A DNA stretch of 64,000 nt, taken from assembly GCA_964342405.1 (NCBI GenBank), contig CAYFGX010000013.1, forward strand, positions 87,098 through 151,097, given 5' to 3'. Below the pieces are notes generated by a model. The model worked only from the letters and a program-made list of their open reading frames with translations, ran no database searches and had not been told where the DNA came from. A program made the position numbers and the translations under genes. Positions 28,163-56,982 of this stretch are shown here, piece by piece. The first letter of the stretch is position 1. Each line of letters starts with the position of its first letter. The stretch comes from an uncultured Verrucomicrobiota bacterium. GTDB taxonomy: Bacteria; Verrucomicrobiota; Verrucomicrobiia; Limisphaerales; AAA164-E04.

Positions 28163-28390
28163 CCTAGGGATCGCTGCAATACCGAAAGGGCGGCTCCTAA
28201 GTAGAGTTGGGCTGAGTTCGAATGCTTGCCTAAATCTCGTGGCGTTACGAAGTTCCAAGGCTGCGATACCCTCACATCGCCATGTTCAGGCAAGAATGGT
28301 GAGATTCGAACCGGCTCAAGGCAATCATGGTTGATACCTAGGTGTTCCATCCTATTGTTCTCTCTTATAGGCTGTGCTTGACTGATGTGA

Positions 28391-29095
28391 ATGCTCGATG
28401 ACTGCCGCCAGGCTGTTGGAACAACTGTGACTGATATTGCCGAGAAACGAATCTCGATCATCGTCGCTGATGATCATCCTCTATTCCGCAAAGGTCTTGC
28501 CGATTTGTTGCGCGAAGACGAAGGGCTTGAGCTGCTTGCTGAAGCGGAGGATGGTAAAACAGCGTTTCAAGTGATCAATGAGTTGCGGCCGCGAGTCGCC
28601 GTGCTGGACATCGAGATGCCTGGACTGTCCGGGATTGAAATCGCTCGAGAACTCCATCTTGCCGGGAACAAAGACACTTCTCTCATTCTCGTAACGGCCT
28701 ACAAAGAGCCAGAAATGTTTGATGAGGCCCTGGATAACGGGGTGAAAGGCTACGTTCTAAAGGAAAATGCCATCGTCGACATCCTGAATGGGATCCGTGC
28801 GGTTGCGAATGGCGAGGATTATATCAGTCCGAGTCTAGCAGGCTTGCTCCTGAAGCGGCGTCGTTCGAGTGAAGGGTTGCGTCAGGAGAATCCTGGCCTG
28901 GAACGGTTGAGTCCGTCAGAGCGCCGAATCTTGAAGTTGATTTCTCTGGATCGAACCACCAAGGAGATTGCAGACGACTTGGGGATCAGTCCCCGAACCG
29001 TCGAGAATCACCGAGCGAATATCGCCCGGAAAGTGGGTATTAGTGGGACGCATAGCCTGCTGAAATTTGCGTTCCAGAATCGTTCCCGCCTCTAG
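28391..29095 (+). CDS. two-component response regulator, NarL/FixJ (LuxR-HTH) family
   Basis: 234 aa. REC domain (IIVADDHPLFRKG..., phospho-acceptor Asp in VAVLDIEMPGLSG) and a C-terminal LuxR HTH (LSPSERRILKLISLDRTTKEIADDLGISPRTVENHRANIARKVGI). Confidence 0.9.
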   Translation: MLDDCRQAVGTTVTDIAEKRISIIVADDHPLFRKGLADLLREDEGLELLAEAEDGKTAFQVINELRPRVAVLDIEMPGLSGIEIARELHLAGNKDTSLILVTAYKEPEMFDEALDNGVKGYVLKENAIVDILNGIRAVANGEDYISPSLAGLLLKRRRSSEGLRQENPGLERLSPSERRILKLISLDRTTKEIADDLGISPRTVENHRANIARKVGISGTHSLLKFAFQNRSRL

Positions 29096-29119
29096 TTCTT
29101 CACTAATCTTCTGGATAAA

Positions 29120-29131
29120 GGACATTTGTCC
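29120..29131. promoter_or_regulatory. palindrome GGACA-TT-TGTCC in the 131-bp spacer between the response regulator gene and the giant gene; candidate operator
   Basis: Inverted repeat read directly. The position fits a regulator binding site, but no consensus is known. Confidence 0.2.
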
Positions 29132-29226
29132 TATTCTTGACCGAATAAGGTCTAGGTGTTCACCCCTATTCGCTACTGAGTAGAGCATCCCATAGGCAGT
29201 ATGTCGGTGTTTGATAATCTACTTGT

Positions 29227-32200
29227 GTGTTTGATTTCGATAGTATTCTCCGACGTGGGTTTAGAGCTCTGACGGGGGACGCAGACATTAATTTTAAACC
29301 TAAGCGGGAGCTGATCTGCCTGCGCTCCGCAGTCGTTGGTCTGGCCTTGTTGCTTTCGATCGGAGCGGAAGGGGCTGTCACTCGGGTTTATGTCGATCAG
29401 AGTGCTGCGGCAGGGGGTGATGGAACTTCATGGCAAGCTGCGTTTCGAGAGCTCAGATACGCATTGCTCGCTCTGGGACCGAACCCTGACGTTCTCACCG
29501 AACAGGAACCGGTTGAAATCCGAATTGCTTCCGGTACCTACCTTCCGGCTGCGACCTCCAGCAGTGAGGATCGCTACAAGAGTTTTGATTTCTCAGGTTG
29601 GTATGACATGACTGTGATTGGAGGCTTTCCGGTAGGAGGTGGGGGGCTCGCCACGGTGAATCCAAGAACCAATGTCACGGTTCTAAGCGGAGATCTCGAC
29701 GGCGATGGCACTCCAGAAAATAACTCCTACAACGTTGTTACGGCCAAGGACAATATCAATCTCACTTTTCAGGGGCTGGTCATCGAACACGGGAATACGG
29801 TTTATCGAAAGGACGACGTTGCCGGCGTTCAAAAAAATCAGATCGTCAATCTTCAGCGTGCGCGAACCGAGGCGGCCCTGAGGGGCTTTGATCTACGAGG
29901 GAATCTTCCCAGTATCGGTCCAGGCTGGATTAAGATTCAGGCTCCCAATCTTTCCAGTGTTTACAATAGTAGGACTCCTTTCGGCGGATGGAATGAAGGG
30001 GATCTTCCGTGGTTGAAAAAACTTTCGAGTGCCTCAGCTTCTCCCGCCACTTGGGCCTTCAATCAGGAACTTTTCATCAGTAGCAATCGCATCAGTGACG
30101 AGAATGGTCATGAGTTTCCGGATCCTTTCAACCCCCTGATGAAACTGGACGCCATTGAACGCTATGAAGGAGATTTTCAGATTGAAAGGCCCTTTTCAAG
30201 TGGGCGCCGCGTTTTCCCCTTTGACATCATTCCTTTCGAAGAGGATGGCATGCCAGGGCCTCGATTTGAGGAACGTAACAAGGATTATCTCTTTGCTGCT
30301 TCTTTGGATGATGTAAATCCGTTCTCCCATGTCGCCAAGCCAGGCTTCGACAGAGTTTCTGGTTTGAATCGAGCTTACCATGATGCGATTCACCGACGGG
30401 GAAACGGTGGTGGCGTACGGAGTTTTCGCTGCTGGAGGCTGTTGTTTCAGGACTGTGTGTTTCGGTTTAATTCTGCGGATGCCTATGGTGGGGCTGTCTT
30501 CAGTAAGCACTCATCCGTTACCTATCAGAATTGTGTCGCCCTTCGAAATAGATCCGGTGCGAGTGGGGGGGCATTCTGTCATTTGGAGGATTCATTCAAG
30601 TTCTTTGAGTGTGAGTTTTTGAAGAATGAAGCGGTGGAGGGGGGTGGACTCTATACTCTCTGGGAGGGGGACGATTACAAGTCCCCTTCATCGGACGACT
30701 TGGTTGGCGACGCGATTGCCCTTTCTCAGGATACTTCTAGGTTTGCGAGAAATGTAAAGAGAGGTCTAATCGCTGGTGCTATTCGGGCGGCCGCAAGGGA
30801 TACGGTTATTCAAGCGGTTAAGAATCAGTTTAAGAACGAGGCAAAGGAGGCATTGTTCGAGACTTTCAAGGACAAGTATAAGTCTGAACTGACAGGCAAG
30901 GAGATTGCGAAGAATCTTGCCAAAGCTGTTGCCTACCAGGGAACGAAATATTTTCATCAATGGTTGGAAGAGGAAGGCTGTGGGAATAATTCCGATTGTA
31001 TCGCCTATGCTCGATTCATGAACAACGTTTTCAAAATCGTTGACTTGGTTCTGTACTGGACGGACGTATTCAATTTGTTCAACGAGTTGAAAGATTTTGC
31101 AGAGGAAACGAATAAGTCTCCAGACGAGGTCGAGGAAGAGCGTCGCCGGGCTGAGGAAGCGAGACTCGCTGCTGTCTTGCTCGAACGGCGGCAAGATTTC
31201 AATTCTGAGGCCAGGTCGATTGTTCGAGACTGTCTTTTTGTCGAGAACGTATCTGCTTTGGGAGGTGTTGGCATTCGGTCGCTTCACACGAATATCCGAA
31301 TCGATCGAACTCAGTTTCTCAATAACCGCTCCACTGGCGCGAGTCTACTTGTTGGTGAGCGGCGTGATGATTACGAGTGGGGCGGTGCCATTCATGGATC
31401 TCATTACTGTGACTTCCTTGTAAGTAACTGCCTCTTCAGGGGGAATCGCACTCATTCGGGCTTGGCCTCTGCGATCATCCTTCGGGTCAATAGCAGTCTG
31501 TTTGCTGAGTATTGCACTCTTCATAACAATAAGGCAGACGAGGGATTCGGATCGGCTTTTTACGGTCTTACCGGCGTCTCTTCTTGGTTCGAGAATTCTA
31601 TTTTTTGGGGAAATCGAAACTCGGAGTTCGATGTGGTGGGCCCGGCCGATATTCAAAGTATTACTTATGACGCGTTACCTGGTGAGATAAAAACTCGGAT
31701 GGCTAACAATGGTCTTGATGCGTCAGACTTTGGCTCTTCGGTTGCCCATCTCGGGGATAGTTTTATTGAGTCCTATCCCGGCTCGTTGGGAGAAGGCGTT
31801 CAGGATAAAGGAGGAAATACTGGGGTCGACCCCGTTTTAACCGCGGACTCCCGACCACAGTGGAATTCACCTCTCCTCGGCTATATTCCGATCAGACCGG
31901 TCGAGCTCCGTGAGTATTCCGAGAAAATTGAATATATTGGTAACGGCTTCTACGGTGCTGTGACAAATCCAGGGGATGTAAAAGATGTTCTGGGTGTTCC
32001 CAGATTGCACGGATCCTATGCCGATATCGGCTGCTTCGAACGAGCGGTTGTTCCTGCGCGAATCTACGTTGGTGGAGCCGGTGTTGTTGGTGGACAAAGG
32101 GGAGACTCTTGGTCGAGTGGAATGGCCGATCTGGCAACAGCGCTGGATGTCATCGATCATATTGTGCCGGCGGAGACGGAGATTTGGGTAAGAGAGGGTG

Positions 32201-35200
32201 TCTACCAATCTCCTAAGGACGACGGCGATCCACAGGATATCGCCTTTCGAACGCATGGGCACCGGAACCTGCGATTGTACGGAGGCTTTGAAGGGGATGA
32301 GATGCTGGCCGATCCTTCAGCCTTTCACCTGGATGTGATGGAGGTGTGTTGTCGAGCGGAGTTACCGGTAGAGGGGCGAAACCTCATTGTATTCGCTTCG
32401 GTAGAGAATCAATCGGAGGATTGGATCAGAATCTTTGACTCGATAGGCGAGCGGGTTGCGGACTTTGCGGTGGGATCTGACGTTGCCTGGAACTTTGACA
32501 AAACACGCCTTTCACGATCAACGCCGAATCTCGATCAAATGCGGACCATTTTCGGAAAGCTCAAGAGCTTACTTGGTCTCAAGCAACCAGATATTTCACT
32601 TTGCCTCGATGGCGAAAGCGACTGGATCTTTGGTGCTGAGTTTGATGCAAGATTGGACTTAATGGAAGTGGAGCGCGTGTCCGAGATTCCGGACCGCGGG
32701 AGGAGTGGAATTGTCGTTTCCCGAATCATCGAATCTGGATTACTTCATTTTCGAGTATTCGATTGCGTTGGGAGAGTGGTTGTCGACGGATTGCAGACGG
32801 AACTGGACGATCCCTCTGATCTCGTCGATTCAATAAGTTTGGATCTTGCCGGATACTGGAGTTCCAATCCGAATACGAGCGAGAAGGCAGATGCGATTGA
32901 GGAGGTAATGGCATTTGCACAGAACGAAGTCGGACTGAAAGTGAGGGATTCGAGCAGTGGGACTCATCAGACCACGATCAGTGGTGAACACGGTGCGAGC
33001 GGTGATCCTAGCGACAATCGAAAGCGACTCTTCTCCATTGACCATGACGGTCGACGGCGCCTCAAGACTCTCGTCGTTGACGGCGTGACTTTCAAGGGGG
33101 CCCGGGAAGGGGCGTTTGGACTCAATCCCGATTCGACTCAAACCTTATTTCGAGATTGTCGATTCATCGAGAACTACAATTTGTCACCTACCGGACGTGG
33201 AGGCGCGATTGAGAACCAAGGAGATCTGACGGTTTTCGGATCGGAGTTTGTTGGGAACTATGCCCGAAAGGGAGGCGCGATTCACTCACTAGGCGGTAGG
33301 ACGACAGTTTTGAGTTCTCGGTTTATTGATAACGTTGCTGAGTATCGGCCGAATGACGCTGCTCTGATTTTTGAAGCAAGCGCAGCGGGCGGAGCCATCT
33401 ATTTGGATCATTCACCCGCGACTGTTCAAAGTTCAATCTTTCATGGGAATCAGGCGATTGGAATCAAGGCGGTTGGTGGAGCGATTGCGGTGAGTCCAGA
33501 TACGCAAGGCACCCATGCTGATACCTTCTTGACCCATTGCACGATCGTTGGGAATCAAGTTGTTTCAGGTGCTGGTAGAGTTGGGGCGAAACCTCTAGGG
33601 GGAGGGGCGGGTTTGTTTGTGAATGCCTTTGATTACACTCAGGGCGCCACATTTATCGACGGCTCCATATTCTGGGACAATGAGGTCCAGGGTTCGGAAC
33701 AGGTCTATCCGCTTCCCGAGCGTCAAATTGATACGCAAGGAAAAGGGTATGAAATCCTTAACTCTGTGGTTCAAGGAGCGGCAACTGATGCGCTTGCTAA
33801 TGTTCGTTCAGTCAATCCTTCGTTTGACGCGACGAGTGGCGATGAGTTTCGGCTCGAAGACTTTTCGCCCTTGTTAAACGAAATCAGTGATTCAAGTCCC
33901 TCATTCTCGGGCGATGCGTTTGATCTCTTGGGGCGGCCCACGGATGACGATTTTACGGTGACTCTCTCGCCCCTGGATAGTCTTCAGGAAAAGAGGCTCT
34001 TCGGTGCCAAGCGAGATTTGGGAGCCTTTGAATTGCAATCAGCTTCAGCTTCGATTGGAGTGCCGCAGTCGTTCTATGATGCGGGCTTGCAGCTCTTTGG
34101 ATTATCATCCGTTGGTTTCAACAATGGACCCGGTGAGAGGATTCGATGGCAGCAGTTCGATGGCAGTGGTGATCCTCTGTTGAATTCTGGTGATTGGATC
34201 GACCTACCTGACGGTGCTGATCTGGACTATGTTTCCTCGGATTCACGATCGCTGCTCTTTAGGCGAAATGTATCAAACTATGGGGATCGCTACTATCGGG
34301 CGGTGATCACTCGGGCGAACGGGCGAGAGATCTTTTCGCCGCCGGCTCTCTTTGATGCGCCGATCCTTTATGTCGATCACGATGCTGCAGGGAACAACAC
34401 AGGGAAGAGTTGGACGCATGCTTTTACGAGTCTTCAAGATGCCTTAGCTGCCGCGCGAGTGTCGGCAGGATGTCGAGAAATCTGGGTTGCTCAAGGAACC
34501 TATTACCCAACGGGAACCTTTGATCGAACGATCAGCTTCGAGATGGTGAATGGTGTGGGGATTTACGGTGGATTTGAAGGGGGAGAAGCGCTTCGTGTGG
34601 ATAGTCAACGAGACGCTAGTCGGACGATCTTGAGTGGCGATATCGGGGCTAGGAATATTAAAGCGGATAATAGCTATGTCGTCGTGAGGAATGCTGTTGC
34701 CCACGGGTCTCGCGCTACCCTTGGTCCTGCATCGATTCTAGATGGTTTTGTGATCGAGGAAGGAAATGCGAATGGGCAGGTGTTTGTTGCCGATAGCCAG
34801 GGGGGCGGAATGTTGAATGAACGAAGTAGCCCGACGCTAAGAAATCTGATCATTCAAAGTAATTATGCCAACGAAGGTGGGGGGGTAGCGAATTTGGATG
34901 CCGAGCCAACTTTCATCAACTGTACAATTTCAAACAACACAGCGGAATATGGTGCAGGGATGTTCAGCCGAGGAGGCAGAATCAATCTCGATCGTTGTTT
35001 CATCGCGAGCAATACGGCGCATGCACGTGGAGGGGGACTTCAGTCGATTGATGCCATTGTTGCACTAAGCTTTTGTGAAGTGCGCTCAAACGACGGAGGG
35101 GGTATACTGCATTCCCGAGGTCAGTTCGATATTCGTGATAGCCTCGTCGCCACGAATGTCGGTGTGCATGATGCCGCAGGGATTCTGGTTTCGGATGGGG

Positions 35201-38200
35201 GCACGGGAAGTGTGATAAACTGCACGGTGGTCTACAACCGGCTTGATGCCTCGGGTACGCCCGGACTATCTCGGTCGGGCGATGACGGTCAATTGTTCCG
35301 AGTCGCGAACTCGATTCTTTGGGGGAATCATTTTACCTCCTCTCGCATTTCCGAGGCGTCGGCGAATCATCAAATTTCTGGCGCGTTGAACCAAACGAAA
35401 TGCCTGGTCCAAAATGGGGGCTTCGGCTTTGACCCGCTATTCGTTGATGACGAGAATGGTAACTACCGATTGTCGGTGTTTTCGCCCGCCATTAACTCCG
35501 GTGACAATGCCGAGGTGACTGACACTCTCAACAGTCGTGATCTGGATGGTGGCGATAGTTTTCGCGTTCAAGAGACAACGGTCGATTTGGGTTGTTATGA
35601 GTTTCAGACCCAGACTGGAGGCCAACTCTATTTTTCAAGCTTACCACAGAGCGGGGCGATTGAGTCGGGGAAAGACCTCAGCATGAGGCTTGGAAACGGG
35701 CAATCGGCTGAGTCGTTTATAATAGAAAGAATTAAGGATGGAGTGGTTGCAACTGTTATCGACGATTCGTTCCATGTGATTCGTCGGAACTCTAACGGTC
35801 TCTCGCTAACTTTGGTGAGCTTGGATCCGTCTCTTGACGGGGCCCAATACCGTTTTCGAGATACTTCGTCAGAGTCTGGATTCGTCTCTGATGTGTACGA
35901 GTTGAACGTGCCTTCGCCTATTTTTGTAGATGGTCGTGTTGCTTCCAGCGGGAACGGCAGGTCTTGGGTAAGCGCAAAGAAAACGATTCGAGCGGCTCTG
36001 AGTGTGGCTGTTTCCGGTCAACAAATATGGATCGCTGAGGGAACCTATTATCCTGTCGATCAAGCCTCGACGGACAGAACTGCTTCCTTGAGCCTGCCCC
36101 AGGGCGTCTCATTGATAGGCGGTTTTGCCGGAGATGAAGTGAGTCTCAGTGAACGGGAATGGGAGCGGCATCCAACGCGTCTAAGCGGCGACATTGGTCA
36201 AGTCGGTGTGGCTGATGACAATAGCCGAGTGTTGCTTCAGGTGATCGGGGATGTGCATGGAACTCCAGTATCTTTGGAGACGGTGATTGACGGTTTGATC
36301 TTCAGTGATGGCAATCAGAATCTGACTCGGTGGGATGCTGCTCTGAATTTGAAAGGGGCGAGTCCTTTGGTGAGGAACTGTCGATTTGAGAATAATCGAG
36401 GCTATCTTGGCGGGGCCGTGACGCTCGATAATTCAGACGCGATTCTGTTTAATTGCCTATTTGCAGGGAACCTTGCCAGAAATGGAGGGGGAGGGATCTA
36501 TTTGAGATCTGGAGCAGGCCAGATCATAAACTGTACGGTCGTTGGGAATCAGGGAGGAACGATCAGTGGCGGCGGCGGAGTTCTAGCAGATGCTTCTTTC
36601 ACTGGCCAAATCGTGAACACGATTCTGTGGTCGAATACGGATCGACGAGAAACGAATACTGGCCCTTCTACCGTGGAACAAATGCAGGTTCGTGGAACGA
36701 CGATGGTCAGCCATTCAATCGTTCAAGGTTTGGATGCCTTGGCTGGCTCGAACAATCTGGGGATCGATCCACTTTTTCTAGATCTGTCGCTCGAAGACTA
36801 TCGGCTGAATCCCTTCAGTCCCGCAGTCGATGCGGGAGATCCCGCTGCCCGTCTCTGGGATGGGCTCGATGCGGCCGGTTCGAGTAGAGTGTTCAATCGT
36901 GGCGGTGGCGGCATTGTTGATATCGGTGCTTACGAAGCGCAATCCTCAGCCCGGGCGCCCATCGGTTTGGTTCAAAGTTACGATGTAGGCGTGATCACTG
37001 GGAGTGGACGCTTGGATGTGAAAACTCTGTCGGGGGAGGCCAACCGCTATTCGTGGCAAGTGGATCGCGGGGACGGAGCTGGTTTCGTTGCCTTGGCTGG
37101 GGATGGGTTTCATCGAATCACCCGCACGGATACGCAGCTTACGCTTGAAATCCTTGGTGCGATCCAGTCGATGCGTGGTTATCGATATCGGTATGTCGTT
37201 GCGAACACGACCCCGTCCTTTGTTGGGAGTCCCGTTCGTCTGGAAGTTGTGCCCCCGGTGCGAGTCGACAGCACCATTGTCTCGAAGTTGACCGCGGCTC
37301 AACTCGATACTCGGATCGAGGATGGCTCTTCCTGGCTCAATGCCTATGTCTCGCTGACGGATGCGCTCAATCAAGTTTCGCGTGGGGGAGAGATCTGGGT
37401 TGCTGAAGGAATTTATTATCCAAGTGACCCGACCGCGGGACGCCGGGATCAAGCCTTCGCGATGCGTCCAGACGTCGGCATCTATGGGGGCTTCAAAGGG
37501 TTTGGCGCGAACGCCGAATCGCTGCGAAGTGAGCGCGATCCGGTCCTTAACCGATCGATCCTCAGTGGGGATATCGGTGTCTTGAATGATCCGACGGACA
37601 ACTCATTCAACGTGATTCGGAACCAGGGGCTTACCGAGGCTTTGGATCGCGACTCGGTCCTTGATGGTTTCGTCATCGTGGGTGCCTACCGTGAGGCTTC
37701 GGCAAACTTTGACCTCAGCGATGGGGGGGCGATCCATAATCAAAGTAACCATCCCACCATTCGTAATTGTGTGATTGAAGGGAATCTCGGACAGCGAGGA
37801 GGGGGGATTGCGAACTACGATTCAGCGCCACTCATCAGTCGGGTTGAGGTTCGAAATAACCGCGCTGCGACCGGCGCGGGTCTTTACAACCATTACTCAT
37901 CGCCGCGGATCGAGAACTGTTTGATCGCAGGGAATACTGCAAGCGGTGATGCAAACCGATTCGGAGGCGGCGTTTTCAATGACGTGTCTAGTGCCCCGAC
38001 TTTTTTGTTTTGCACCGTGTCTGCCAATCAATCGCCCTTTGGAGGGGCCGGGATTGGGAACGACTCATCGGCCTCACCGATCATCGCTAATTCAATTCTC
38101 TGGGGAAATCTCAGCGGGGATATCGCAGGGACCTCGTTGTTTGGCGGAACGCCGACGGTTTCTTTTTCTACGGTTCAAGCCTCTCCGTCGCCTGCGGGAA

Positions 38201-41200
38201 CGGGAAATCAGAACTTCAATCCGCTGTTTCAGGCGTGGCGAACACAGGATTATTCGCTCTCACCGTTTTCGCCGGCGCTCGATTCGGCATCAACTTCTGT
38301 TGCGATGGAAGACACCGCCTTTCTTGATCTTTCGGGAGCCCCACGAGTGAGCGGGGCGCAGAGTGATTTAGGGTGCTATGAGCTGGATCTATCCTCCGGT
38401 CGTAAGAGCCCAATAATGCTTACTTCAGCGCCGGAGCAAGGTTTCAGTATGGGTTCAACCGAGTTTCCTGTCATTGGACATCCGGCAGCCTTGGTGCAGT
38501 GGGAGATGGATCTCACGAACGATAACGTGGTGAGCTTTGTGCCATTGATTGAGTCGCCAAACCGACAACTGAGAACGACTGCGAGCGCTTCTACGCTTGA
38601 GGTTATTGAACCTACGGCCGCTGCATCGTTTCGATTCAAGGCTGTCCAAAATGGGGAAGTATTTGTTTCTGAAGCTTTTTCGGTAGCGGTGATGGATCCG
38701 ATCCTGGTCAAGAGCGATGCTTCGGGCGTCGAGGATGGGAAAACCTGGGGGACTGCTTTCAGAACCCTGACTTCGGCATTGGCTCAGGCGTCGCTTGGTC
38801 AAGAGATTTGGGTGGCCGCTGGTGTGTATTTTCCGACATCGGGTAGGGATGCATCGGTGGCATTTGAAATGAAAGATCGAGTGGCGATCTACGGTGGCTT
38901 TGATGGCACTGAATCCAATCGAGATTCACGCGATTGGTTGAGCAACGTCACGGTCCTGTCAGGGAATATTGGCGAGCTGAGTGTGGAGTCCGACAACAGT
39001 TTGCACGTGCTATCCAACCGGGACTTAAGTCGTCGCGCGGTATTAGACGGTTTTGTGATTGAAGGCGCCTTTGGTGGGGCCGCGATGCTGAACAGAAATG
39101 CGAGTCCTACAGTGCGACACTGTGTCTTTCGTGATAACCAGAGTCTTGTCACCGGTGCGGGAATTGTGAATGTGCTCGGAGCTCCGCTGATCGAAGCTTC
39201 GTCGTTCTACCGGAATCGGGGGCTTCGTGGAGGGGCGCTGGAATCGCTTGGAGCCGGATCTTTTCCCGAAGTAGTGAATAGTCTCTTCTATGAGAACGAA
39301 GCTGTCAGTGACGGTGGGGCCATCTTCAATGAGGACGGGGGCCGTTTCGTCAACGTCACAGTTGCGTTCAATCGGACAGGAGAACTCGTCGGCGGCATGG
39401 ACAATGCAAAGGCGAACGCAGTCACCGTCTCAAATTCCATTCTTTGGGGGAACCAGCCAAGCTTCTCGAATCGAAGCCAAGTGCTGAGCGGGCAAATAAG
39501 GAAGGGAACAATCCTCCAGTCGATCGTTCAAGGAATGGCGATCCCCGGTGAGGATGGAAACTCTGGCTTGGATCCGCTCTTCGTGAACCCCGCATTTGGA
39601 ATGTTCCAATTGTCGGGCTTTTCGCCTGGGATCGACGCCGGAAATTCGAGCTATCTCGATGACCGCTTTTCTAAAGATCTCATGAATCGAGATCGGCGTT
39701 TTGCAGGGACAACAGTTGATCTGGGTGCCTATGAGTTCCAAGGGGCTCGAGTCGGTGATATCGGATTGTTTCAAGCCTTCACGGATACGACGCTTTTAGG
39801 AGGCGGGACCCTGCGGGTGAGGGTGCCATCAGGCCAGGGGGCAAAGGTGGAGTGGCTGCAAGATGTGGGGGCAGGTTTTGTTCCGGTTGTTATGGATTCA
39901 GTGCATTCCGTCCTGATTGATGACGAATCCTCTGCTCTGAGGATTCTGAATCCTGCCATCGATCTGAATGGAGCACGTTATGCCTTTCAGATCGTTGTTC
40001 CCAGTGCAGGGACGTTTCAGTCTGGATCTGCAACTCTCAAGGTCTTTGCTCCACTCCTCGTCGATGCCTCAGTCACACCGGTTGCGAGTGGCCGTGATAC
40101 GAACGGCGTGTATCAATCGCTTCAACAAGCGCTTGCTGAGGTTTCCGAAGGAGGAGCCATTTGGGTGGCAGCGGGAACTTACACGCCAACCGGAATAGAT
40201 TCGGGTGATCGGTCTGCAAGTTTTGGCCTGGTGCCAGGTGTCTCGGTCCTGGGCGGGTTCGAGAGTGGTCAGCTTCCTGCGCAGTGGTCGGCAGCTTCCC
40301 GCGATCCCGATCAGTTCGTGACCAGACTAAGTGGTGAGATCGGGGACCCGAATCTCCGAACCGACAATAGCTTCCGGGTGATTGATAACGACGGAAGGAC
40401 ACGGGACCTCGGGGAGCGCACGATTCTTGACGGTTTTGTAGTCGAGGGGGGCTACGGAACGAATGGCGTTGGAATGAGAAATGTGGATGCGAGTCCTGTG
40501 ATTCGTGATTGCGTCTTTCGAGACCACTATGCATCCGCATCAGGCGCTGCGGTCGAGAATCAAGGCACCTCCGCTCCTCTCATCGCTGCGTGCCGCTTTT
40601 ACGATAACGAGTCGGGAAGCACAGGTGGGGCGATCTCGAATTTCGGTTCGGGGAATCCACTGGTCGTCAATTCGGTGTTTCAAGGAAACAGAAGTGGTGG
40701 GGCGGGAGGCGCCATTTATTCCGAAGCTCTGGCGGCTGTGATCAACGGGACCTTTACGCTAAACCACTCGGGAGGTCTCGGAGGGGCTGTGTTTGGTCTA
40801 ACTCCCGACTCAGTGGAGGTGGTCAATTCCATTCTATGGGGAAATACTGCCACTGAAGAAGTGTCCGTGGAACAAGGCCAAGTTTTTGGGGCTGCCGTGA
40901 CGGATTCGATCGTTCACGGTTTGGAGAAACTTGCTGGGAATCGCAATATCGCTTTGGACCCTTTGTTCATTGATCCGTCGCAGTATGATCTTCGTCTATC
41001 GGTCTATTCGCCTGCCGTTGATCAGGGGGCAGCAGGAAAGGATCCAAGCGGTCAGACAACAGATGCCTGGAAGCAGCCGCGGGTCTTTGGTTCTCAAGTC
41101 GACCTCGGGGCCTTTGAGGTGCCTTCTGTTTCTCCGGGGGCTCTAGGAATCATTGAAGGCTATTCTGTCGTAGAATTGGCCGAGGGTGAGACCGTGCTTC

Positions 41201-44200: not shown

Positions 44201-47200
44201 GCCAGGAGATCTCTGAGAGTGCGAGCCTAGGGGTTCGATTCTCAACCCTGTTCGTGGACGTGGATGTCACGGGGAACGGAGATGGGAGCTCTTGGGAGAA
44301 TGCATTTACGGATCTACAGGCATCCATTGCAACGGCGGCTGCTCTCAATACCGAGGTCGAAATCTGGGTTGCTGAGGGGACTTACTATCCGGCTGGAATC
44401 AATTCCGGTAACCGGGATGCAAGTTTCATGATGTATCCGAATGTCTCTCTACTCGGAGGTTTTTCTGGTGCTGAAGAAGCGGCCTCTGAACGAGATTGGG
44501 AGAGGAATCTGAGCATCCTCAGCGGAGACATCGGAGTGGCCAATGACAACACGGACAATAGCAAGCACGTGGTGTTTGCATCGGGGCCAGACATCCAAAA
44601 GACCCTAGGTCCCTCGGCAATTCTGGACGGTTTTATCGTTGAGAAGGGATATGGCCCGGGCGGAAGCGGATTACATGTCGATGGGGCTTCGCCGACGATC
44701 AGAAATGTCGTTTTCCGAGGGCATGTCTCAACGGCCAAAGGGGGGGCGATTTACATAGATCGAGAAGTAGAGGGATTTACTCAAGATTCGAGTCCGTCGT
44801 TCGAATCCTGTCGGTTCGAAAACAACACCGCTCAGTCGGGTGGGGGAGCGGTTTTTGGAATCCATATGGGAAATCAACGGTTTCAAGAATGTGTTTTTGA
44901 GAACAATCGAACCCTTTCAGGCCGAGGGGGAGCAGCTAGTTTTGAGACCAAACCCTTTGTGGCCGCTTCAAATCTGCAGTTTCTCTCTTGTTCCTTTGTT
45001 GGCAACCAATCAACAGGTCCGGGGGGAGCGATGGCAGTGGATCAGGAAGATGGGGAGTTGAATCTCCGGAATTGCTTCTTTGGAGGAAATCGAGCCACGA
45101 GTGGTGCCGGTGGTGCGCTTAGCTTGGGGTTGGAAGGGGGGAGCACTAACGAAAGCTTCGTAGTTGGCTGTACCTTTCTTGCGAATCGGGCGAGGTGGGG
45201 AGGAGGGGCAATCTCGAATAGGGTTCGCAATTTCGAGATGCACAATTCGATCATTTGGAATAACCGAGACACTTCCGGGACTGGTGGGAACCGTGCATTG
45301 GATGTTTCGAGTGATCAATCGATCATTCGGCAACAGGTGACCATCAAGTCTTCCTCGCTCGAGAACTATGCGGGGATCAAGGGCTTGATTGAGGAGCGCT
45401 TGGACCCCTATACGCCGACCTCGTTCACCAAGTTTGTTGCGATTGGCAATCTCTCGGTGGATCCACTTTTTGTTCAGATGGGTGATCCTGACGTGGCGCC
45501 GTCAGTTTCCGTGTCGCCAGAGATTAACTGGTGCTCTCCAGTGATTGATCGAGGCTTCACTACGGAGCTCGTCGGGAGTGATCGAGACGTGACTGGCAAT
45601 AGCCGAAGATTTAGACGGGGGGCTCCGGATATAGGTGCCTATGAGCTTCAGGAAGAGCGGATTCCATCAATCTCGATCGTGAGTCATCCTGAAGACGCCT
45701 ATTCATCGCCCAGTGGGACAGCTGTGTTCAGTGTTATTGCGAGAGGAAGCTTCGATTCGTACCTTTGGCAGCAGGATCTTGGTGACGGTGCGGGCTGGAT
45801 GGGTCTGCAGGAGTCAGCTACGTATCAGAATGTTGGCACGGATACTCTGACTATTGTAGGACCGGCCTTGCTACTGGATCAGAGCAGCTATCGGTGCGTG
45901 GTATCAAGTGCCGTTGGATGTGCTCCCATCTCGAGCAATGGGGCGGATCTCTTCGTCGATTCGACGCCCCCTTCGATCACGGGAATGCCGGATACCATTT
46001 ACCTCTATCCTGCCAGTGGTGATCGAAGTGCTGAAGCCACTTGGACAGAACCCGTTGCCAGCGACAACTATGCGGTTGCCACTCTGGTTCACGATGGTCC
46101 CCAGGATCGAGTCTTTGCGGAAGGAACGACCACCGTGACGTATACGGCAACTGACTTGGCCGGGAATGTCAGAACCGCAAAGTTTGATGTCATTGTGACG
46201 CCCCTGATCGCCGCCATTCTTCCTTCCCCAAAGCCAGGCGGAGCCGTCGATCAGAATTCGGAGTTCGTGTCGATTGAGTTCGATCAATCCATAGCCGGAA
46301 GCAGTCTCGGTGATCAATCGGTATTCGTCTATGGCTCCCAGTCCGGTCGGTCCAGCATCGGGAATGGCGGGTTGGACTCGCTGGAGGCGAATGGAGCTGC
46401 GATCAGGATTCAGGATCTCGAGTCCTTTTACCCGGGAGAGTCGGTTCAGGTCACCTTTACAGACAAGGTGATGTCAACTCGGACGCATGCCATGGAACCT
46501 TATATCTGGTCCTTCCAAATGGCCAATCGAAGCAGCGATGGCGGGTTCGATCTCGATCTTGAATCGATCATGCCAAACGCTGATCTGATCCCGAAACTTG
46601 GCGATCTCGACGAGGACGGGGATTTGGACCTGTGGCTGGCAGATCCGATGGGTGGGAGTCGTTGGATGAGGAATGATGGTTCTGGTGTTTTTGCTGATGC
46701 GGGACAGTCAATGGGGAGCGCAAAAGTGAATTCTGTTGAGCTCCTCGATTTAGATGGCGATGGCGATCTTGACGGGGTGGTTCTAACGGAGGTCGGTCTT
46801 GCGATTGAATGTTGGATGAATGATGGGAATGGCGTTTTCACCTCGCGAGTGAACTCGGTCGGGACCGGAGATGTCAGGGATCTTGCCGTAGGCGACTTCA
46901 ATGGAGACGGGGTTCTCGATCTCTTCGCTGCCCATCATGATGCTCCAAGCGAGTATTGGAAGAATGATGGGACAGGATTCTTCTCTGTTGAGTGGTCGAC
47001 ACCCGGTAGTGAACGAGCATCAGGGATTGAGGCGGGGGATCTTGATCTCGATGGTGACCTTGATGTGATATTAACCCGCGTTGACTCGCTAGGCGCCAGC
47101 CAGTCCGACCAGGTTTATCTAAATCGGATGCGGGGAAGTTTCCTCGGACCTTTCGATCTTACTGTCAGCGAAGCGGATATTACGCAGCTCGGGGCGACCA

Positions 47201-50200
47201 TTGATTCAATTGATTCGCCACGAGACGGAGATTTCTCTGTTTCGAGAATGATTGATGGGAATACGGGAACAGATACGTGGTATGAAGATTTCAATAACGA
47301 GCCTCAGAACGCACTGCTGAATATTTCGTTTGATTCGGCCTACTATCTCAGTCGCTACGCCATTACCTCGACGATCCATAGTTGGGCTCCTGCGAGCTGG
47401 CGGGTTTGGAATTTTCAAGATGGCGTTCGCACCGATATCGATGAGCGGTCCGGTCAGTCATTTCGCAATATGGCTACAATCGCGAATGGCGTTCCACCGC
47501 TGAACCCTGTGGACCACGTTTGGCTGTCTCTCTTTGGTCAGTCATTCGCTCGCTACCTGATGATTTCTGAAATTCAATTCTATGGACGTGCGTTGCCTGT
47601 GGCTGAATTGACGAGTCGCCGAATTCTCTTGGCTGATATTGATAACGATTCAGACCTTGATCTGATTAGTGGCAATCCAAGTAGTACCGAGACTCGAGTC
47701 TATCTCAATGACGGGAGTGTCGGGCGAGATCGAGTTCCTCAGTTCTCTCATGGACGGGTTCTCTTTAAGGGGGGGTTGGAGGCTGGATCCTATTTCGGTG
47801 ACTTCGACGGAAATCAATTGCGCGATGTGTTTGCCCTCACAACTGCCCCGAGTGGAGGTTTGGAGTCCCATGTGCTGCGAAATGAAGGTGGCGGAACCTT
47901 TTCGGTTCATCAGACAATTGTGGGTGGAAAGCGATTGGCTCTCGGGGACATCGAAGGCGATGGCGACCTTGATGCGGTGATGGTTGTCGAGCCGGGCTTA
48001 GACGGAGGCGCTTCTGCTGCCGAGTTGATCGCCAGTCGTTACTCCCAGCTTCCTATCGCTTCGGGAACGAAAATTGAAATACTGGAAGATCACAGTTTTT
48101 CGTTCACTCGGACCTTCTTTGAAGACCGTGTCAGCGATGACGGAGCGTTTTCAGGGATCAAGATTGTCGCTCTGCCGGCAAATGGCTCTCTCAAGCTTGG
48201 GAGCGCGACGATTGCTGTGGGACAACTTCTCGATCCAGACCAGCTATCCGAGTTCGTTTACGTTCCGCAACGGGGATTCAGCGGCAAGAACTGGTTCGAG
48301 TGGCAAGCCCGGGATCGATCGGACCAGCTATTTAGTGCCTCTGGCAGGGTTCAGATTAAAGTGATACCGGTCAATGATCGTCCAATCATGAGTTCGATCT
48401 CGGATAGAACCTTCGATATTGCGAAAGCGAATCCTTGGGTACGATATTTTGATCCTAGTCCCGGCGATTCAGACCAAGAATGGTTTATGGAGTTGAGCCA
48501 TGATAATCCTCAGTTGATCCGCTCTGTGACCCGGGATGTGAGTGCGAACGATCGAATCAATCGACGTGGAAAAATTCGATTTGATTTTGTCGAAGGGCAA
48601 ATTGGATCGGCCCTTGTGACGGTTGTTGTCACGGATGATGGAGGCACCGCCCATGGAGGCATCGATCGATTTGTGACCACGTTTACGGTGACCGTTCGAG
48701 ATACGGTGAATCCTGCGATTGCCAATATGCCTGCGGACATTTCCGTCGTCGTTGGTGCGGGATCACGTCTCGTCCCGGTCACTTGGGATCCGCCAACACT
48801 CAATGTAAATTCAGGTCTCACGAACCTGAGCTCTAGTCATTCATCGGGAGATCTGTTCCCCATCGGTGCTACTCCTGTTGTCTATACCGCCAGCGATGGT
48901 TCAGGTAATGAAGAGACGGCAACCTTTACCGTGACCGTGCTGGATCAAGAGTCGCCGATGGTGGTTAACCCGATCTCTTCTTTTGACGTGCCTCTTCCAA
49001 TCGGAGACGTGACGGCGCAGGTCTACTGGGCGCCTCCTGTGTTCGCTGATAATGATCGAATCAAATTGCAAGGAAGCACGCACGTGCCCGGTGACGTTTT
49101 TCCGGCTGGTGATACGGCCGTTCAATACTGGGCAGAGGATCCTTCGGGGAATCGGTTAAGTTCTGAGTTTGTTGTGTCGGTGGTCGACCGAGAGCTTCCC
49201 GTCCTCAGTGGGGTCCCTTCGGATAGGACTCAGGAGACCGATCCGGGTCTTGCTTCTGCGACGGTGACTTGGTTGCCGCCTGTGGCCTCTGACAATTCGG
49301 GGTCCGTTCAGCTCAGTGCAAGTCACTCGCCCGGAGAAATGTTCGCGGTGGGGGAAACGGTTGTGACTTATGCTGCGGTTGATGGAGCGGGAAACCGGAC
49401 GGACGGGGACTTTACGGTTCGGGTTGTGGATCGTGAAGCGCCGAGTTATGCAACGTTTCCCGCAGATATTGATGTCGCAACGGATGCTGGGCTTGCAACA
49501 GCGACGGTGACCTGGGTGGCTCCTGTTGCTTCGGACAATGTTGGGGTTGTCACATCGACCGCGACCCAGCAGCCTGGTGCCAAATTTCCTCTTGGACGAA
49601 ACGTCGTGGTCTATTCCGCAAGGGATGCGGCCGACAATGTCGTCACTCGTTCGCTCGTCATTTCGGTGTTGGATCAGGAACGACCAAGTATCTCCGGTCT
49701 CCCTGCGGATATCTCGATCCCGGTCTCGGCCGGGGCCGAAGGGATGAGTATCGATTGGGTAGAACCTACTGCGAGCGACAATGTTGCGGTAGCGTCCTTC
49801 ACCAGTTCTCATCAGCCTGGGGCGCTCTTTCCGATTGGGTTGACAACAGTGACCTATACGGCCAAGGACTCCGCGGGAAACGAACTGAGTCGTTCCTTCA
49901 AGGTGCAAGTGACGGATGACGAGGCGCCATCTTTTGTAGGGAGCCTCGAGACCGTTGAAGTACCGACGGATCCCGGGCTTGCGAGCGCTCGTGTCACTTG
50001 GGATGCGCCCCTCGTCCACGATAATGGGGAGAGAGTCGCTTTGAGTTATAGCCGAGCCCCGGGATCGATCTTCCCGTTGGGAACGACGACGGTCAATGTG
50101 ACCGCGACTGATATTTCGGGCAATCAAGCGTCCGACAGTTTTGATGTTGTGGTTGTCGACGAGGAAAGTCCTGTGTTCGAGAGTGTTCCCGCTGATATCA

Positions 50201-53124: not shown

Positions 53125-53821
53125 AACACAGACCGCTTCACTAGGAGTTCCTTTGAGTATGAGGCTAGCACCAGATTTCCTTCGCTGGATCGGCTTGCTG
53201 TTGCTGCTGCTTGTCAGTTCCGGCAAGGCTCAAGCTGCTTTCATTATTGTTGTGGGCGATCATGAGCTAGCGCCAGGGCTGCCCGACCAAAAAGTAGAAC
53301 TCTATTTCAGCAATACCGCAGCACCGCAGGAGATTGCTGGATTCGACTTCAACATTCAAATGGGGGATGGAGGACCAGAGGCGCCGGGTGGTGCTGTTGA
53401 TGGCCCATCAATTACGAATGTGGATCTAAAAACAAATACGATCTTTGGGGGAGTGGCTGCGACTCAAGTCATGGCTCCAAGTTTGGATCAAGTGCGAGTG
53501 GAGTCGATCACCTTGGATGCAGGGACGGTCTCCGTTCCCGTGGCGACGGATTCGAGTCTGCTGATGGCTACGGTGACCGTTGACACAACCGGCTTCAATA
53601 CACTAGGTGCGAGTTGGTCCTTGAAGATCAACAACACGCTGAACGGGAACTCACAATTCCTAGATGGGGGTGTTAGTGCCGTCGCGATCTCGGAAACTGC
53701 TGGTTCGATCACGATTGCAGCCGTACCAGAGCCTAAGGCTTTTGCTTTGGTTGCGGGGGGCTTTGTCGTTCTCTTCAGATTGTGGGGGCGGAGGCGCGAA
53801 GGGCTCGGCTCGTCTGCCTGA
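53117..53821 (+). CDS. PEP-CTERM sorting-domain protein (exosortase substrate), overlapping the giant gene stop
   Basis: 234 aa. ATG at 53117 overlaps the giant TAG stop (ATGAATAG). N-terminal signal (LLLLLLVSSGKAQA). C-terminus VPEPKAFALVAGGFVVLFRLWGRRREG is a PEP motif, TM helix and Arg cluster. Confidence 0.7.
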   Translation: MNRTQTASLGVPLSMRLAPDFLRWIGLLLLLLVSSGKAQAAFIIVVGDHELAPGLPDQKVELYFSNTAAPQEIAGFDFNIQMGDGGPEAPGGAVDGPSITNVDLKTNTIFGGVAATQVMAPSLDQVRVESITLDAGTVSVPVATDSSLLMATVTVDTTGFNTLGASWSLKINNTLNGNSQFLDGGVSAVAISETAGSITIAAVPEPKAFALVAGGFVVLFRLWGRRREGLGSSA

Positions 53822-53856
53822 TTATTGATGCGGTGAGTGCTGATTGATGGAGCTTG

Positions 53857-56800
53857 CTAGGCTTGGTGGGGGAGTGGAAACCGAATCACCCATTCTGTGC
53901 CATTGCCCACGGAGGAAATGAGTTCGCAAGAGCCTTTGAACATTGTCGCTCGCTCTCGAATCCCACTGAGGCCAAAGCCGTGCTGCTCCCTAGTTTTTTC
54001 GAGATCTGGATCGAATCCTCGCCCATTGTCCTTGATTCGCAAGGTGATCATTTGATCTGTAATCAGGAGGGTGACGATCACTCGAGTGGCCTCTGCATGT
54101 TTGAGGCAATTGTTCATCGCTTCTTGGATGATTCTAAAGAGGTTGATTTGCTTTTCCGCCGAAAGATTCTTTGGGATAGGTTCGATCTCATGTTCGATCT
54201 CAATCTCACTCGCATCGCCGATCTGATTGAGCATGCCTTGAATGGCTTTCGTCAGGCCGAGTCGATCGATCTGGTAGGGGCGGAGATTGTTGGCAATACT
54301 TCGGACTTCCTGGATTGAGTCCAAGCTGATGTCCGATATCTCCTGAAGTGCTGTCCCCATCGCATCCGGCCCTGTGGGTGTGCGGAGTGTGAGAGCGGCT
54401 CGGTTCTTGATGACGAGGAGGTTCTGTTCGAGGCTATCATGCAGTTCTCTGGCAATCCGTTTTCGATCAGCTTCCTGTCGCGAGAGCATATCTCGGGCGA
54501 AGCGCTCTTGCTCAGTTTTTCGACGCTTGTCGCGACTGATACGAGTAAGGAATCCCAGTGAAACGAGCCCCATGAAACCAAGTGCGCCTAGGGCCTGGAA
54601 TCCCGCTGACCTCCAAATGGCGCCTTCTACCTTGAGGGTTAATGTCGTGTCGTCTTCGTTCCAAAGTCCGCTATTGTTGGCTGCCGAGGCTTGAAACTGA
54701 TAGTTGCCAGGAGCGAGATCTTGCAACACGACTGACTGTTGAGGGCCGATATCGGTCCAATCTGAGCTGATCTCTTTCACGCGATAGCGAAATCGAATCT
54801 CGTCTGGTGCCGAAAAGTTGAGGCCGGAGAATTGAATTTCTATTCTTTCTACGTGGGAAGGAACTCTAAAGGTCGGATTGTTTCGGTGCTGGGATATTGG
54901 GTTTGGACGGCCGTCGAGGGAGAGATTTTCGAGGAGAACTGTGGGCGGAGTCTTGTTCAGTGGGAGAGTTTTCGGGTTTACATAGCATGGTCCCCCGCTC
55001 GTAGCGAACCAGAGATTGCCATCGTCCGTGCGAAGGCTGGAGGGGTGTCCGGCGTTGCATTGGAGTGAGGGAAGGCCATCATCTGTCGAGTAGGAGTTGG
55101 CGAACAAATATGAGATCTCTCCGTTGGCGACGCGATCGAAATTATCGAACGAGACTCGATGGATCCCATTGTAGGAACCGAACCATAGACTCCCTAGATG
55201 GTCATCGATGAGTGTGCTGATCTCATTGGAAGGAAGACCATGCTCGGTGGAGTAGTGCTGAAAGGTGCCGTGGCGGAATCGATAAATACCTTGTCCTCCG
55301 GTTCCAAACCAGATGTCGCCTGATTGTCCGATGGCGATTGCTCTGACTCGGATGGGGGCGACCTGTGAGGCCTTGGAAACGTGTTCGAAGCGATCGGCTT
55401 TGTAGCGGTAAATGCCGTTATCGCCGGTTCCAATCCAGACTGTGCCATCGGGCCCGCAAGCGAGACTCAACACCTCTTTTGTTGGCCGGTTTTCGTAGGC
55501 TGTGAGATCCATTGGCTGATTGTCCTCAATTACAGCGAGTCCCCCATCACTGCTGCCAACCCAAAGCCTGTTTTCCAGATCGTAGCAGGTCGCGACAATT
55601 CGTCTTCCCAATCCGATGTCGAATGCATCAATCGGTATGAAGGCTCCATCCTTGAGTGAAAATGTCGATGCCGATCGGCGGCGTTGATTTGATTTGCTTA
55701 GGCCGGTTGCATATTTTCCACCGAATACGTCTCCCATTTGGTTGGCCGTTAGCGTCCAAATGTCTCCTCTGCCCTGATGGATCGCATTATCAAGAGTGGT
55801 GCCATAGAGCTGATTTTTTGGAATTTCCAAAATTCCTCTAATTGTGCCGAGAAGGAGGTTTCCGGATTTTTTTTGAAGAAACGAACGGGCTTTGGTGCCC
55901 TCTGGAGGAAGGCCGCTGATTAAGCGGAATTTGCGTTTGCGAATCCTGCTGAGTCCCTTGTCAGCTAATGTAGCATTGGCCGTCCAGAGCGTGCCCTCGG
56001 CATCGGTGACTAAAGGTCCGCCAATGTCCAGCGGCGTACTCTGGATGTGGTATTGGCCCTGGTCGTCTGGAACGTAGTGTTCTTGGGCCGTAGATTTGGT
56101 TCTTTTCACCCAAAGTGAACCGTCACTGACTTCAAGGATGCTAGTGGCCTTTTTCAGTTCCTGGTCTTCTTGAATGATCTCACCTGAGATAATTCTTTCC
56201 CCATTATACCTCAAGATTCTTCCATCGACCGCAAGCCAGATGCCGCCCGATCTCGCGGGTGTAGGTCCCGCCGTGATCAGTTCACTTTCGTTAAAGACAT
56301 GTTGGGTGGACATGTTGTCCTCTGTCAGAGTTCCCAACTTATTTCCACGACTCCACCATGTCGTTCCTTGATGGTCCGTTACCGCGGTGAAAGGTGGGTT
56401 CTGTTCCCCGGGCAAAGGTGTGAGAACTGCGTGCTCGGTTGGACGGGCACCCTTCATAGACATGAGGCGGCGCTGTCGTGTGTCACGGTTCAGACTCGAA
56501 TACACCAAGGTGCCGTCGGGACGGATTGTATGAAGTGAAAGGCGTGTCTCTGGATTCGTCCGCAGGCCCGTTGTGCGGTGGAAAGTCCCTTTGCTGTATT
56601 GAATGATCTCGTCTCGCACATTGAGCCACAGCGATCCATTTGCTGCGGGAATGATACCGCTCACTCTTCCATGGGGGAAACCCGGTGTGTTCGCGTCAAA
56701 AACCGTGAACTCTTGCCCATCGAACCGGGCGAGTCCGTAGAAAGTGCCAAGCCAGATGTAGCCATCTGTGGATCTAGCAATACTGAGAATTGGGCTGCCA

Positions 56801-56982
56801 GGGATACCGTCGTTAACGTTCCAAGTGTCTGCGATGTAGCCGCCCTCTAACTCAAAATACGATTTTCCCCTGAGAACTTCTTCGGGGATCATAGCGAGCA
56901 GGAATCCAATGAGGAGTAACTTCAGAATCCTTAGGGCGAGATGACCGGAGTTTGATTGAGGCATCGGTGATGTCGAGACCAT
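53857..56982 (-). CDS. sensor histidine kinase, NarL-type (HisKA_3 + HATPase_c), with large periplasmic two-component-regulator-propeller (Reg_prop) and Y_Y_Y domains
   Basis: 1041 aa. Signal/TM, then repeated WxGTxxGLxxY propeller blades, a Y_Y_Y-like region and a TM helix (LGALGFMGLVSLGFL). HisKA_3 H-box (RIARELHDSLEQNL) and N/G-box ATPase (DNGRGFDP, GFGLSGIRER). Confidence 0.9.
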   Translation of the reverse strand: MVSTSPMPQSNSGHLALRILKLLLIGFLLAMIPEEVLRGKSYFELEGGYIADTWNVNDGIPGSPILSIARSTDGYIWLGTFYGLARFDGQEFTVFDANTPGFPHGRVSGIIPAANGSLWLNVRDEIIQYSKGTFHRTTGLRTNPETRLSLHTIRPDGTLVYSSLNRDTRQRRLMSMKGARPTEHAVLTPLPGEQNPPFTAVTDHQGTTWWSRGNKLGTLTEDNMSTQHVFNESELITAGPTPARSGGIWLAVDGRILRYNGERIISGEIIQEDQELKKATSILEVSDGSLWVKRTKSTAQEHYVPDDQGQYHIQSTPLDIGGPLVTDAEGTLWTANATLADKGLSRIRKRKFRLISGLPPEGTKARSFLQKKSGNLLLGTIRGILEIPKNQLYGTTLDNAIHQGRGDIWTLTANQMGDVFGGKYATGLSKSNQRRRSASTFSLKDGAFIPIDAFDIGLGRRIVATCYDLENRLWVGSSDGGLAVIEDNQPMDLTAYENRPTKEVLSLACGPDGTVWIGTGDNGIYRYKADRFEHVSKASQVAPIRVRAIAIGQSGDIWFGTGGQGIYRFRHGTFQHYSTEHGLPSNEISTLIDDHLGSLWFGSYNGIHRVSFDNFDRVANGEISYLFANSYSTDDGLPSLQCNAGHPSSLRTDDGNLWFATSGGPCYVNPKTLPLNKTPPTVLLENLSLDGRPNPISQHRNNPTFRVPSHVERIEIQFSGLNFSAPDEIRFRYRVKEISSDWTDIGPQQSVVLQDLAPGNYQFQASAANNSGLWNEDDTTLTLKVEGAIWRSAGFQALGALGFMGLVSLGFLTRISRDKRRKTEQERFARDMLSRQEADRKRIARELHDSLEQNLLVIKNRAALTLRTPTGPDAMGTALQEISDISLDSIQEVRSIANNLRPYQIDRLGLTKAIQGMLNQIGDASEIEIEHEIEPIPKNLSAEKQINLFRIIQEAMNNCLKHAEATRVIVTLLITDQMITLRIKDNGRGFDPDLEKTREQHGFGLSGIRERATMFKGSCELISSVGNGTEWVIRFPLPHQA

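Follow-up and report, generated by a model that had tools for sequence, protein, structure and literature searches.

The 64-kb window analyzed here (64,000 nucleotides of contig CAYFGX010000013.1, from an uncultured marine bacterium of the Verrucomicrobiota) contains a gene for a giant protein of 7,965 amino acids (aa), which lies between the gene for a response regulator and the gene for a sensor histidine kinase. Our preferred reading, which we hold with reasonable rather than high confidence, is that these two regulatory genes, the giant gene, and a small companion gene encoding a protein with a PEP-CTERM-like tail form a single regulatory module. Judged from its sequence, this module is probably a conventional autoregulated switch whose cargo gene is very large. 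Gene anatomy, conserved linkage in relatives, and a conserved box shared by three upstream regions are all observed directly, and they carry this reading.

The response regulator is of the NarL/FixJ type (28391..29095, plus strand; 234 aa) and combines a receiver with a GerE helix-turn-helix (HTH) domain according to Pfam. After a gap of 131 bp it is followed on the same strand by the giant gene (29227..53124), which begins with GTG. The conserved small secreted-protein gene comes next, again on the plus strand; the public annotation places it at 53159..53821 (220 aa), and an alternative start at 53117 overlaps the stop codon of the giant gene. Convergent to it, with 35 bp between them, is the kinase gene (53857..56982, minus strand; 1,041 aa), with Reg_prop, Y_Y_Y, HisKA_3, and HATPase_c domains by Pfam, so that the cargo between the split regulator and kinase amounts to 24.6 kb. 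The kinase has its own upstream region of 277 bp, bounded by a strong GC-rich hairpin of 12 bp (57225..57253) at the end of the Band_7 gene upstream of it, and because this hairpin ends the neighboring gene, we take the kinase to be a separate transcription unit. The coordinates, spacings, and domain calls of an earlier sequence-only reading of this region all held when we re-checked the open reading frames (ORFs) and Pfam matches.

The regulator, the kinase, and their linkage to the giant gene

The assignment of the regulator to the NarL/FixJ class rests on Pfam matches to Response_reg (E=9.8e-23) and GerE (E=3.7e-16, residues 172-221), on a receiver that carries the acidic pocket, Asp, Thr, and Lys, and on the C-terminal position of the GerE HTH. 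The phospho-acceptor set (D27/D28, D73, T102, and K105) is invariant in the regulator's orthologs, and the HTH region is nearly invariant across them, which fits the expectation of a conserved operator. The window regulator falls in a 90%-identity cluster (13 sequence variants), and Pfam finds no Sigma54_activat domain in it.

The kinase has the HisKA_3 and HATPase_c domains of its class and an H-box that reads RELHDSLEQ; the Pfam E-values are 8.9e-24 for Reg_prop, 6e-14 for Y_Y_Y, 2.8e-14 for HisKA_3, and 1.4e-15 for HATPase_c. It stops right after HATPase_c, and neither a receiver nor an HTH domain was found in it (no Response_reg or HTH_18 match). A strongly hydrophobic segment lies at its N terminus and a second hydrophobic stretch lies directly before HisKA_3; because these flank the sensor part of ~750 aa, the sensor should lie outside the cytoplasm. 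The closest solved structures are the Bacteroides hybrid two-component sensors 4A2L/4A2M (E=1e-35) and 3V9F (E=4e-34) for the sensor domain, and DesK and VraS for the kinase core. The best NCBIfam matches (MctS, UhpB, LiaS, NarQ, and NarX) are all far below their cutoffs. An identical kinase protein is present in a Tara Oceans marine metagenome assembly. In the public annotation, the kinase start lies 30 codons further in, giving 1,011 aa, and with that start the N-terminal hydrophobic anchor would be lost.

Divergence is faster in the sensor part than in the kinase core: identity to the L005 kinase is 33% versus 62%, and identity to the L001 kinase is 64% versus 71%. The ligand may therefore differ between lineages. 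The sequence-only reading had proposed that the cue is probably a glycan. That proposal draws only on the sensor domain being homologous to those of Bacteroides hybrid sensors; the window kinase is not a hybrid, its sensor domain diverges quickly, and a glycan as the cue is only an analogy.

Among the larger ORFs of the window we found no further histidine kinase or receiver gene, and receiver and kinase queries taken from relatives gave no additional match in it. Because the classes match and the 64 kb hold no other partner, a pairing of the HisKA_3 kinase with the GerE-type regulator is favored. We traced orthologs of the regulator into five differing genomic contexts. In all five, the neighbor was a Reg_prop/Y_Y_Y/HisKA_3 kinase of the same clade. 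The regulator of L005, a Limisphaerales metagenome-assembled genome (MAG), is 79% identical to that of the window and has a convergent kinase 172 bp away with no gene between; in L006/L012 (also 79%) the order is regulator, one AAL_decarboxy-family gene, and convergent kinase. The kinase and then the regulator stand in tandem in L007/L008 (71%), L010 (69%), and L011 (67%), and more distant regulator homologs (45-52%) are mostly found in kinase-then-regulator operons. The convergent layout of the window pair already exists in its closest relatives with no cargo or a small cargo between the genes.

Helix 1 of the DHp domain helps determine partner specificity in two-component systems, and identity in this helix was 22-24/24 across the close kinase clade. 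It falls to 17-20/24 in kinases that adjoin the remoter regulator homologs, and most of the other Reg_prop kinases scored reach 9-13/24. Overall identity between the window kinase and the kinases that neighbor regulator orthologs is 39-47% (54-63% in the kinase core), compared with ~22-29% for most of the wider family. From ortholog adjacency, identity, and DHp helix 1 together, we conclude that the window kinase belongs to the kinase lineage that neighbors this regulator lineage. The claim of the sequence-only reading that the two are a cognate pair is thus supported by the same-clade kinase beside the regulator in every context, as far as comparison can speak to it. Other adjacent partners of either gene were not encountered in the relatives, so the pairing withstands the synteny check which that reading had proposed.

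The giant gene is linked to both ends of the pair. When the first 2,000 aa of the giant were used as a protein query, the matches were all distant beta-helix proteins; giant orthologs, and even the query protein itself, were missing from them. For that reason, the ends of giant genes in relatives were located via the kinase, the regulator, and a DNA pattern. At the kinase end, orthologs with 58-65% identity in three to four relatives (L001, L003 together with a 30.7-kb JGI contig, and L004) are convergent to a gene of 215-234 aa and a gene of 6,774-7,725 aa, and no regulator adjoins them; the L001 kinase is 65% identical to that of the window. At the regulator end, a 77% identical regulator in L094 is followed by a homologous giant N terminus (RVYVDQNAGVGGDGSSWNRAFRELRDAL versus RVYVDQSAAAGGDGTSWQAAFRELRYAL). 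In L095/L096, which were found independently by DNA pattern, a 91% identical regulator precedes a giant N terminus that is 43% identical and colinear over 1,280 aa, and the upstream neighbors of this regulator differ from those in the window. A regulator 93% identical to ours (P0360) lies on the same 9.77-Mb contig as the L001 kinase and giant gene. Large secreted proteins are also found downstream of regulator orthologs where the kinase lies upstream (L011 and L007), as well as at the distant loci L021, L035, and L073. The recurrence of both the kinase end and the regulator end in relatives, together with the shared box described below, speaks for the connection that the sequence-only reading had drawn between the pair and the giant gene.

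The giant protein begins with a signal-peptide-like segment and has Pfam matches to Beta_helix (five), HYR (eight), FG-GAP_3 (ten), and Big_9. Its C terminus is a conserved module with a duplicated dockerin-like motif (RVTTADVLLVRNN ... RVNGVDVLLARNH). The small protein ends in a tail of VPEP, a hydrophobic helix, and RRR (terminal sequence ...AAVPEPKAFALVAGGFVVLFRLWGRRREGLGSSA), which reaches only E=0.068 and 13.7 bits against Pfam PF07589 (cutoff, 20.7) and is likewise subthreshold for the NCBIfam PEP-CTERM models; the PEP-CTERM-like tail is kept in three orthologs. Conservation is strong in the last ~350 aa of the giant (window 52100-53124) and in the small protein, compared with the 43% of the L095 N terminus: L001 is 82% identical over the last 1,386 aa of the giant and 76% in the small protein, and L004 is 51% identical over the last 343 aa and 65% in the small protein. 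We considered a cohesin-dockerin reading, with the giant anchored to the small PEP-CTERM protein, and did not find it supported (Dockerin_1 E=1.2, no PDB profile hit); a single-sequence AlphaFold model had a pLDDT of 35 and was unusable. Anchoring of this cohesin-dockerin-like kind is an idea only.

Several further genes accompany the kinase or the regulator in relatives. An AAL_decarboxy-family gene adjoins the kinase in L001 (16930-17883), L004 (818-1753), and L006 (10686-11654), with 56-60% identity between loci; the 64-kb window has no copy. In the tandem-operon relatives L010 (6458-6799) and L011 (4320-4661), a gene for a single-domain receiver of 113 aa lies ahead of the kinase, and in L011 a 145-aa receiver-like gene (8648-9085) comes after the regulator. 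The window has no equivalent of these extra receiver genes.

A box shared by three upstream regions

Comparison of the regulator-to-giant spacers of the window and L094 exposed a conserved CTAGGTGTTCACCCCTAT. The corresponding directional box, TAGGTRTT-N5-CTAT (17 nt), has exactly three matches in the 64 kb, compared with 0.00 expected, and these lie one each 5' of the regulator, the giant gene, and the kinase, all in the sense orientation. Copy 1 (TAGGTGTTCCATCCTAT; 28339..28355, plus strand) is 35 nt 5' of the regulator ATG. Copy 2 (29153-29169 in its directional form) ends 57 nt 5' of the giant GTG, where it forms a 7-2-7 inverted repeat, TAGGTGT-TC-ACCCCTA (29153-29168). Copy 3 (TAGGTATTCATCCCTAT in minus-strand reading; 57076..57092) is 93 nt 5' of the kinase ATG. 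When the window was searched with the palindromic form, the giant site was recovered along with a two-mismatch site 5' of the kinase (expected total, 0.13), and this second site had no part in defining the palindromic pattern.

Because the directional pattern was refined after the window sites had been seen, the independent test lies in the relatives. In 148 kb of non-redundant related loci, all 8 of 8 strict matches were located 35-134 nt 5' of kinase, regulator, or receiver genes and in the sense orientation, and ~1% of positions in these loci qualify as such upstream positions. There were no strict matches in 1.2 Mb around distant regulator homologs, a control made up of loci kept from a genome scan with peptide patterns from the regulator alignment, mostly distant homologs. 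The box is found 35 nt 5' of the regulator orthologs in L005 and L095, as in the window, and at 69 nt in L006 and L094. It likewise precedes the kinase orthologs of L001, L004, and L006 and, with mismatches, those of L005 and L003. At regulator and kinase promoters, the left half of the box is much better kept than the right.

At the giant gene, the box is part of a longer cargo-type module (29153..29195, plus strand), in which copy 2 is followed by GAGTAG (29178-29183) and then by TCCCATAG (29188-29195). Expressed with fixed spacing, the 43-nt pattern is TAGGTGTK-N5-YTA-N9-GRGTRG-N4-YCCCATAG, and it occurs 5' of cargo genes for secreted or surface proteins in four organisms besides that of the window. 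It precedes the giant N termini of L094 and L095/L096; in L006 the gene that follows it encodes a Big_9/cadherin-like protein of at least 950 aa, and in L010 one of 237 aa with a PEP-CTERM tail. A full palindrome at the cargo, and sites well preserved only in their left half at the system's own promoters, would be expected of a dimeric NarL-type regulator that binds them with differing affinities.

The sequence-only reading had pointed to a different operator, the palindrome GGACA-TT-TGTCC (GGACATTTGTCC; 29120..29131). It is present, and its function is unsupported: with one mismatch or fewer the pattern is expected 2.26 times by chance, and it is not conserved, as L094 and L095 have unrelated short inverted repeats. 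At the RNA level, its folding is no better than that of shuffled sequences. The same is true of the hairpins that follow the regulator in three organisms (z = -0.67, -1.18, and 0.05), and no known RNA family was found in the regulator-giant intergenic region.

A sigma-54 promoter requires a GG-to-GC spacing of 12. We rejected a sigma-54 promoter as an explanation of the box, in which this spacing is 10 and of which many copies have no GC. Around box copy 1 there is a single sigma-70-like match (28331-28358), whose spacer contains the box, in a scan that performed at chance level. A fourth exact TAGGTGTT octamer occurs at 15087-15094 in the window, without the rest of the box and near the junction of a SIS-domain gene (14277-15062) and an FG-GAP-ASPIC gene (15038-17377, minus strand), and it is probably a chance match.

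Proposed mechanism and alternative explanations

As we envision it, the membrane kinase would sense an extracytoplasmic signal through its double beta-propeller/Y_Y_Y domain and autophosphorylate on the HisKA_3 histidine, and Asp73 of the NarL-type regulator, whose gene lies 24 kb away, would receive the phosphate. A dimer of the phosphorylated regulator would then bind the 16-18-bp box, which reads TAGGTGT-N2-ACCCCTA at the cargo promoter and has a degenerate right half at the regulator's and kinase's own promoters. Binding would control three units: the regulator gene and the kinase gene, by autoregulation, and the giant gene with the small PEP-CTERM gene. We infer the phosphotransfer between kinase and regulator, the binding of the box by this regulator rather than by another factor, and any sign that the regulation may take (activation or repression) from sequence comparison.

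Several points weigh against this model. The main gap is that both ends of the module were seen on one retrieved stretch in no relative, and the evidence for control of the giant gene by a cognate pair is comparative. In a 1,770-bp contig from JGI sample 3300072015 (P0121), an 88% identical regulator is followed 355 bp on by an opposite-strand gene (203 aa, partial), which could be either the C terminus of a convergent kinase, in the L005 arrangement, or a gene mis-called antisense within a giant gene. Two tandem paralogous kinases lie at the 3' end of the giant gene in L001 (10001-16365) and L003 (608-6713). They are 45-48% identical to each other, with nearly identical DHp helix 1 and differing sensor domains, a combination that suggests several inputs into one regulator. 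Partners of the regulator may also be encoded elsewhere in the genome. Finally, scans for sigma-70 promoters and terminators, which bear on where the box lies with respect to the transcription start, were at chance level, and the single orientation of the box and its closeness to start codons mean that it could be a promoter element or the site of another factor.

This last possibility raises the question of whether a third factor, such as an alternative sigma factor or another transcription factor, reads TAGGTGTT...CTAT and co-regulates the three units, with the local regulator having other or additional targets. Such an arrangement would account for the constant orientation of the box with respect to the downstream gene and for its promoter-element-like placement 24-134 nt from most start codons. 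It would also suit the far better conservation of the left half at the regulator and kinase promoters, and the extra fixed-spacing blocks of the cargo module could be core promoter elements. The 7-2-7 inverted repeat at cargo promoters, however, suits a dimeric HTH protein, and a 17-nt box is too short for a -35/-10 pair and has the wrong GG-to-GC distance for sigma-54. Moreover, the distribution of the box follows this regulator clade strictly, with no occurrence in the 1.2 Mb around distant homologs, and we therefore consider a third factor unlikely. Alternatively, the kinase and regulator could be partners and the giant gene a passenger between them that is not under their control. A convergent pair does exist without a giant gene, with nothing between in L005 and one small gene in L006, and the giant gene changes quickly (43% identity at a locus whose regulator has 91%). 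Nevertheless, the best and most palindromic box lies directly 5' of the giant gene, the 43-nt module in that position is kept in L094 and L095, and large secreted proteins recur after regulator orthologs even with the kinase upstream in tandem (L011, L007, L021, L035, and L073), all of which make a mere passenger improbable.

It is also conceivable that the kinase and regulator are unrelated orphans that lie near each other by coincidence, each signaling with partners encoded at other places in the genome. A distance of 24 kb separates the two genes, which are on opposite strands and in separate transcription units, and our search for partners within the window covered 64 kb. We find this explanation very hard to credit, given that linkage is kept at both ends in several organisms, that a same-clade kinase is always beside the regulator orthologs, that the kinase clade has its own DHp helix, and that the kinase and regulator promoters have the box in common. 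Going beyond the switch that we favor, the region could be a self-contained 'sense-and-display' cassette, in which a fast-evolving sensor would diversify with the giant surface protein and the kinase would sense the giant's ligand or its state of display or engagement, as feedback on the 24-kb gene. Hints in this direction are the conservation seen in a close relative (regulator, 93%; giant C terminus, 82%; small protein, 76%; kinase, 65%), the faster divergence of the sensor domain than of the kinase core, and cassette-flanking genes that differ between relatives on both sides. We regard this as a speculative and rather doubtful extension.

Comparison with known systems and neighboring genes

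In NarX/NarL-type systems, which are often autoregulated, a HisKA_3 kinase is paired with a GerE/LuxR-type regulator whose binding sites are 7-2-7 inverted heptamers; the NarL heptamer is TACYYMT. The window system resembles them in its HisKA_3 and HATPase_c kinase core, in its regulator architecture, and in its candidate operator, a putative 7-2-7 inverted repeat, and the boxes 5' of the system's own genes suggest autoregulation. It differs in its sensor, a double beta-propeller/Y_Y_Y domain of ~750 aa rather than the four-helix-bundle nitrate sensor, in its half-site (TAGGKGT), and in the convergent split of its genes around 24.6 kb of cargo, and no equivalog model reaches its cutoff. With the hybrid two-component systems of Bacteroides, the window kinase shares a homologous periplasmic sensor of Reg_prop beta-propellers and Y_Y_Y, and both are linked to a neighboring target locus. 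In the hybrids, however, a HisKA-type kinase, a receiver, and an AraC-type domain are fused, whereas the window has a stand-alone HisKA_3 kinase and a separate NarL-type regulator.

A third comparison is with PrsK/PrsR, a two-component system that is reportedly associated with PEP-CTERM/exosortase loci. As in the window, a two-component system is there linked genetically to a gene for a PEP-CTERM-tailed protein. PrsR is a sigma-54-dependent NtrC-type regulator, whereas the window regulator is of the NarL type with a GerE output, and no PrsK or PrsR model was among the listed NCBIfam matches (the best 25 of 92 for the regulator). The window system is therefore neither a hybrid system nor PrsK/PrsR; its parts are those of a NarX/NarL-class two-component system with a sensor domain of the Bacteroides-hybrid type. 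In kind, it is a standard autoregulated two-component system beside its target, and what is unusual is the size of that target and the split convergent layout.

Full-text literature searches turned up neither a description of this system nor one of regulators for giant genes of this kind. Giant surface-protein genes are costly to transcribe and translate, their control is largely unstudied, and the lineages that carry the one described here are uncultured. The locus yields a testable model in which the sensor and the regulator are defined, three promoters carry a conserved 16-18-bp candidate operator, and the cargo promoter has the conserved 43-nt module. The box could serve to search Verrucomicrobiota genomes for the remaining regulon, and in vitro assays or a heterologous host would allow tests of it without culture of the organism.

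The nearest named relatives of the window are Verrucomicrobia/Verrucomicrobiota and Limisphaerales MAGs. Past the kinase, the window contains a Band_7/SPFH gene and a small downstream ORF (57260-58716), followed by an RtcR-type sigma-54 activator (59130-60710). No exosortase gene was seen in the 64 kb. A weak Wzz/GNVR chain-length-determinant-like gene (61318-62658) may connect the region to exopolysaccharide and PEP-CTERM biology. The other side of the module carries typical Planctomycetota-Verrucomicrobiota content with no relation to the regulatory genes (128-9953 and 19514-26171): a pair of PSCyt1/PSCyt2/PSD1 genes, of which one is followed by a DUF1501 gene, and an outer-membrane factor/HlyD/AcrB efflux operon.

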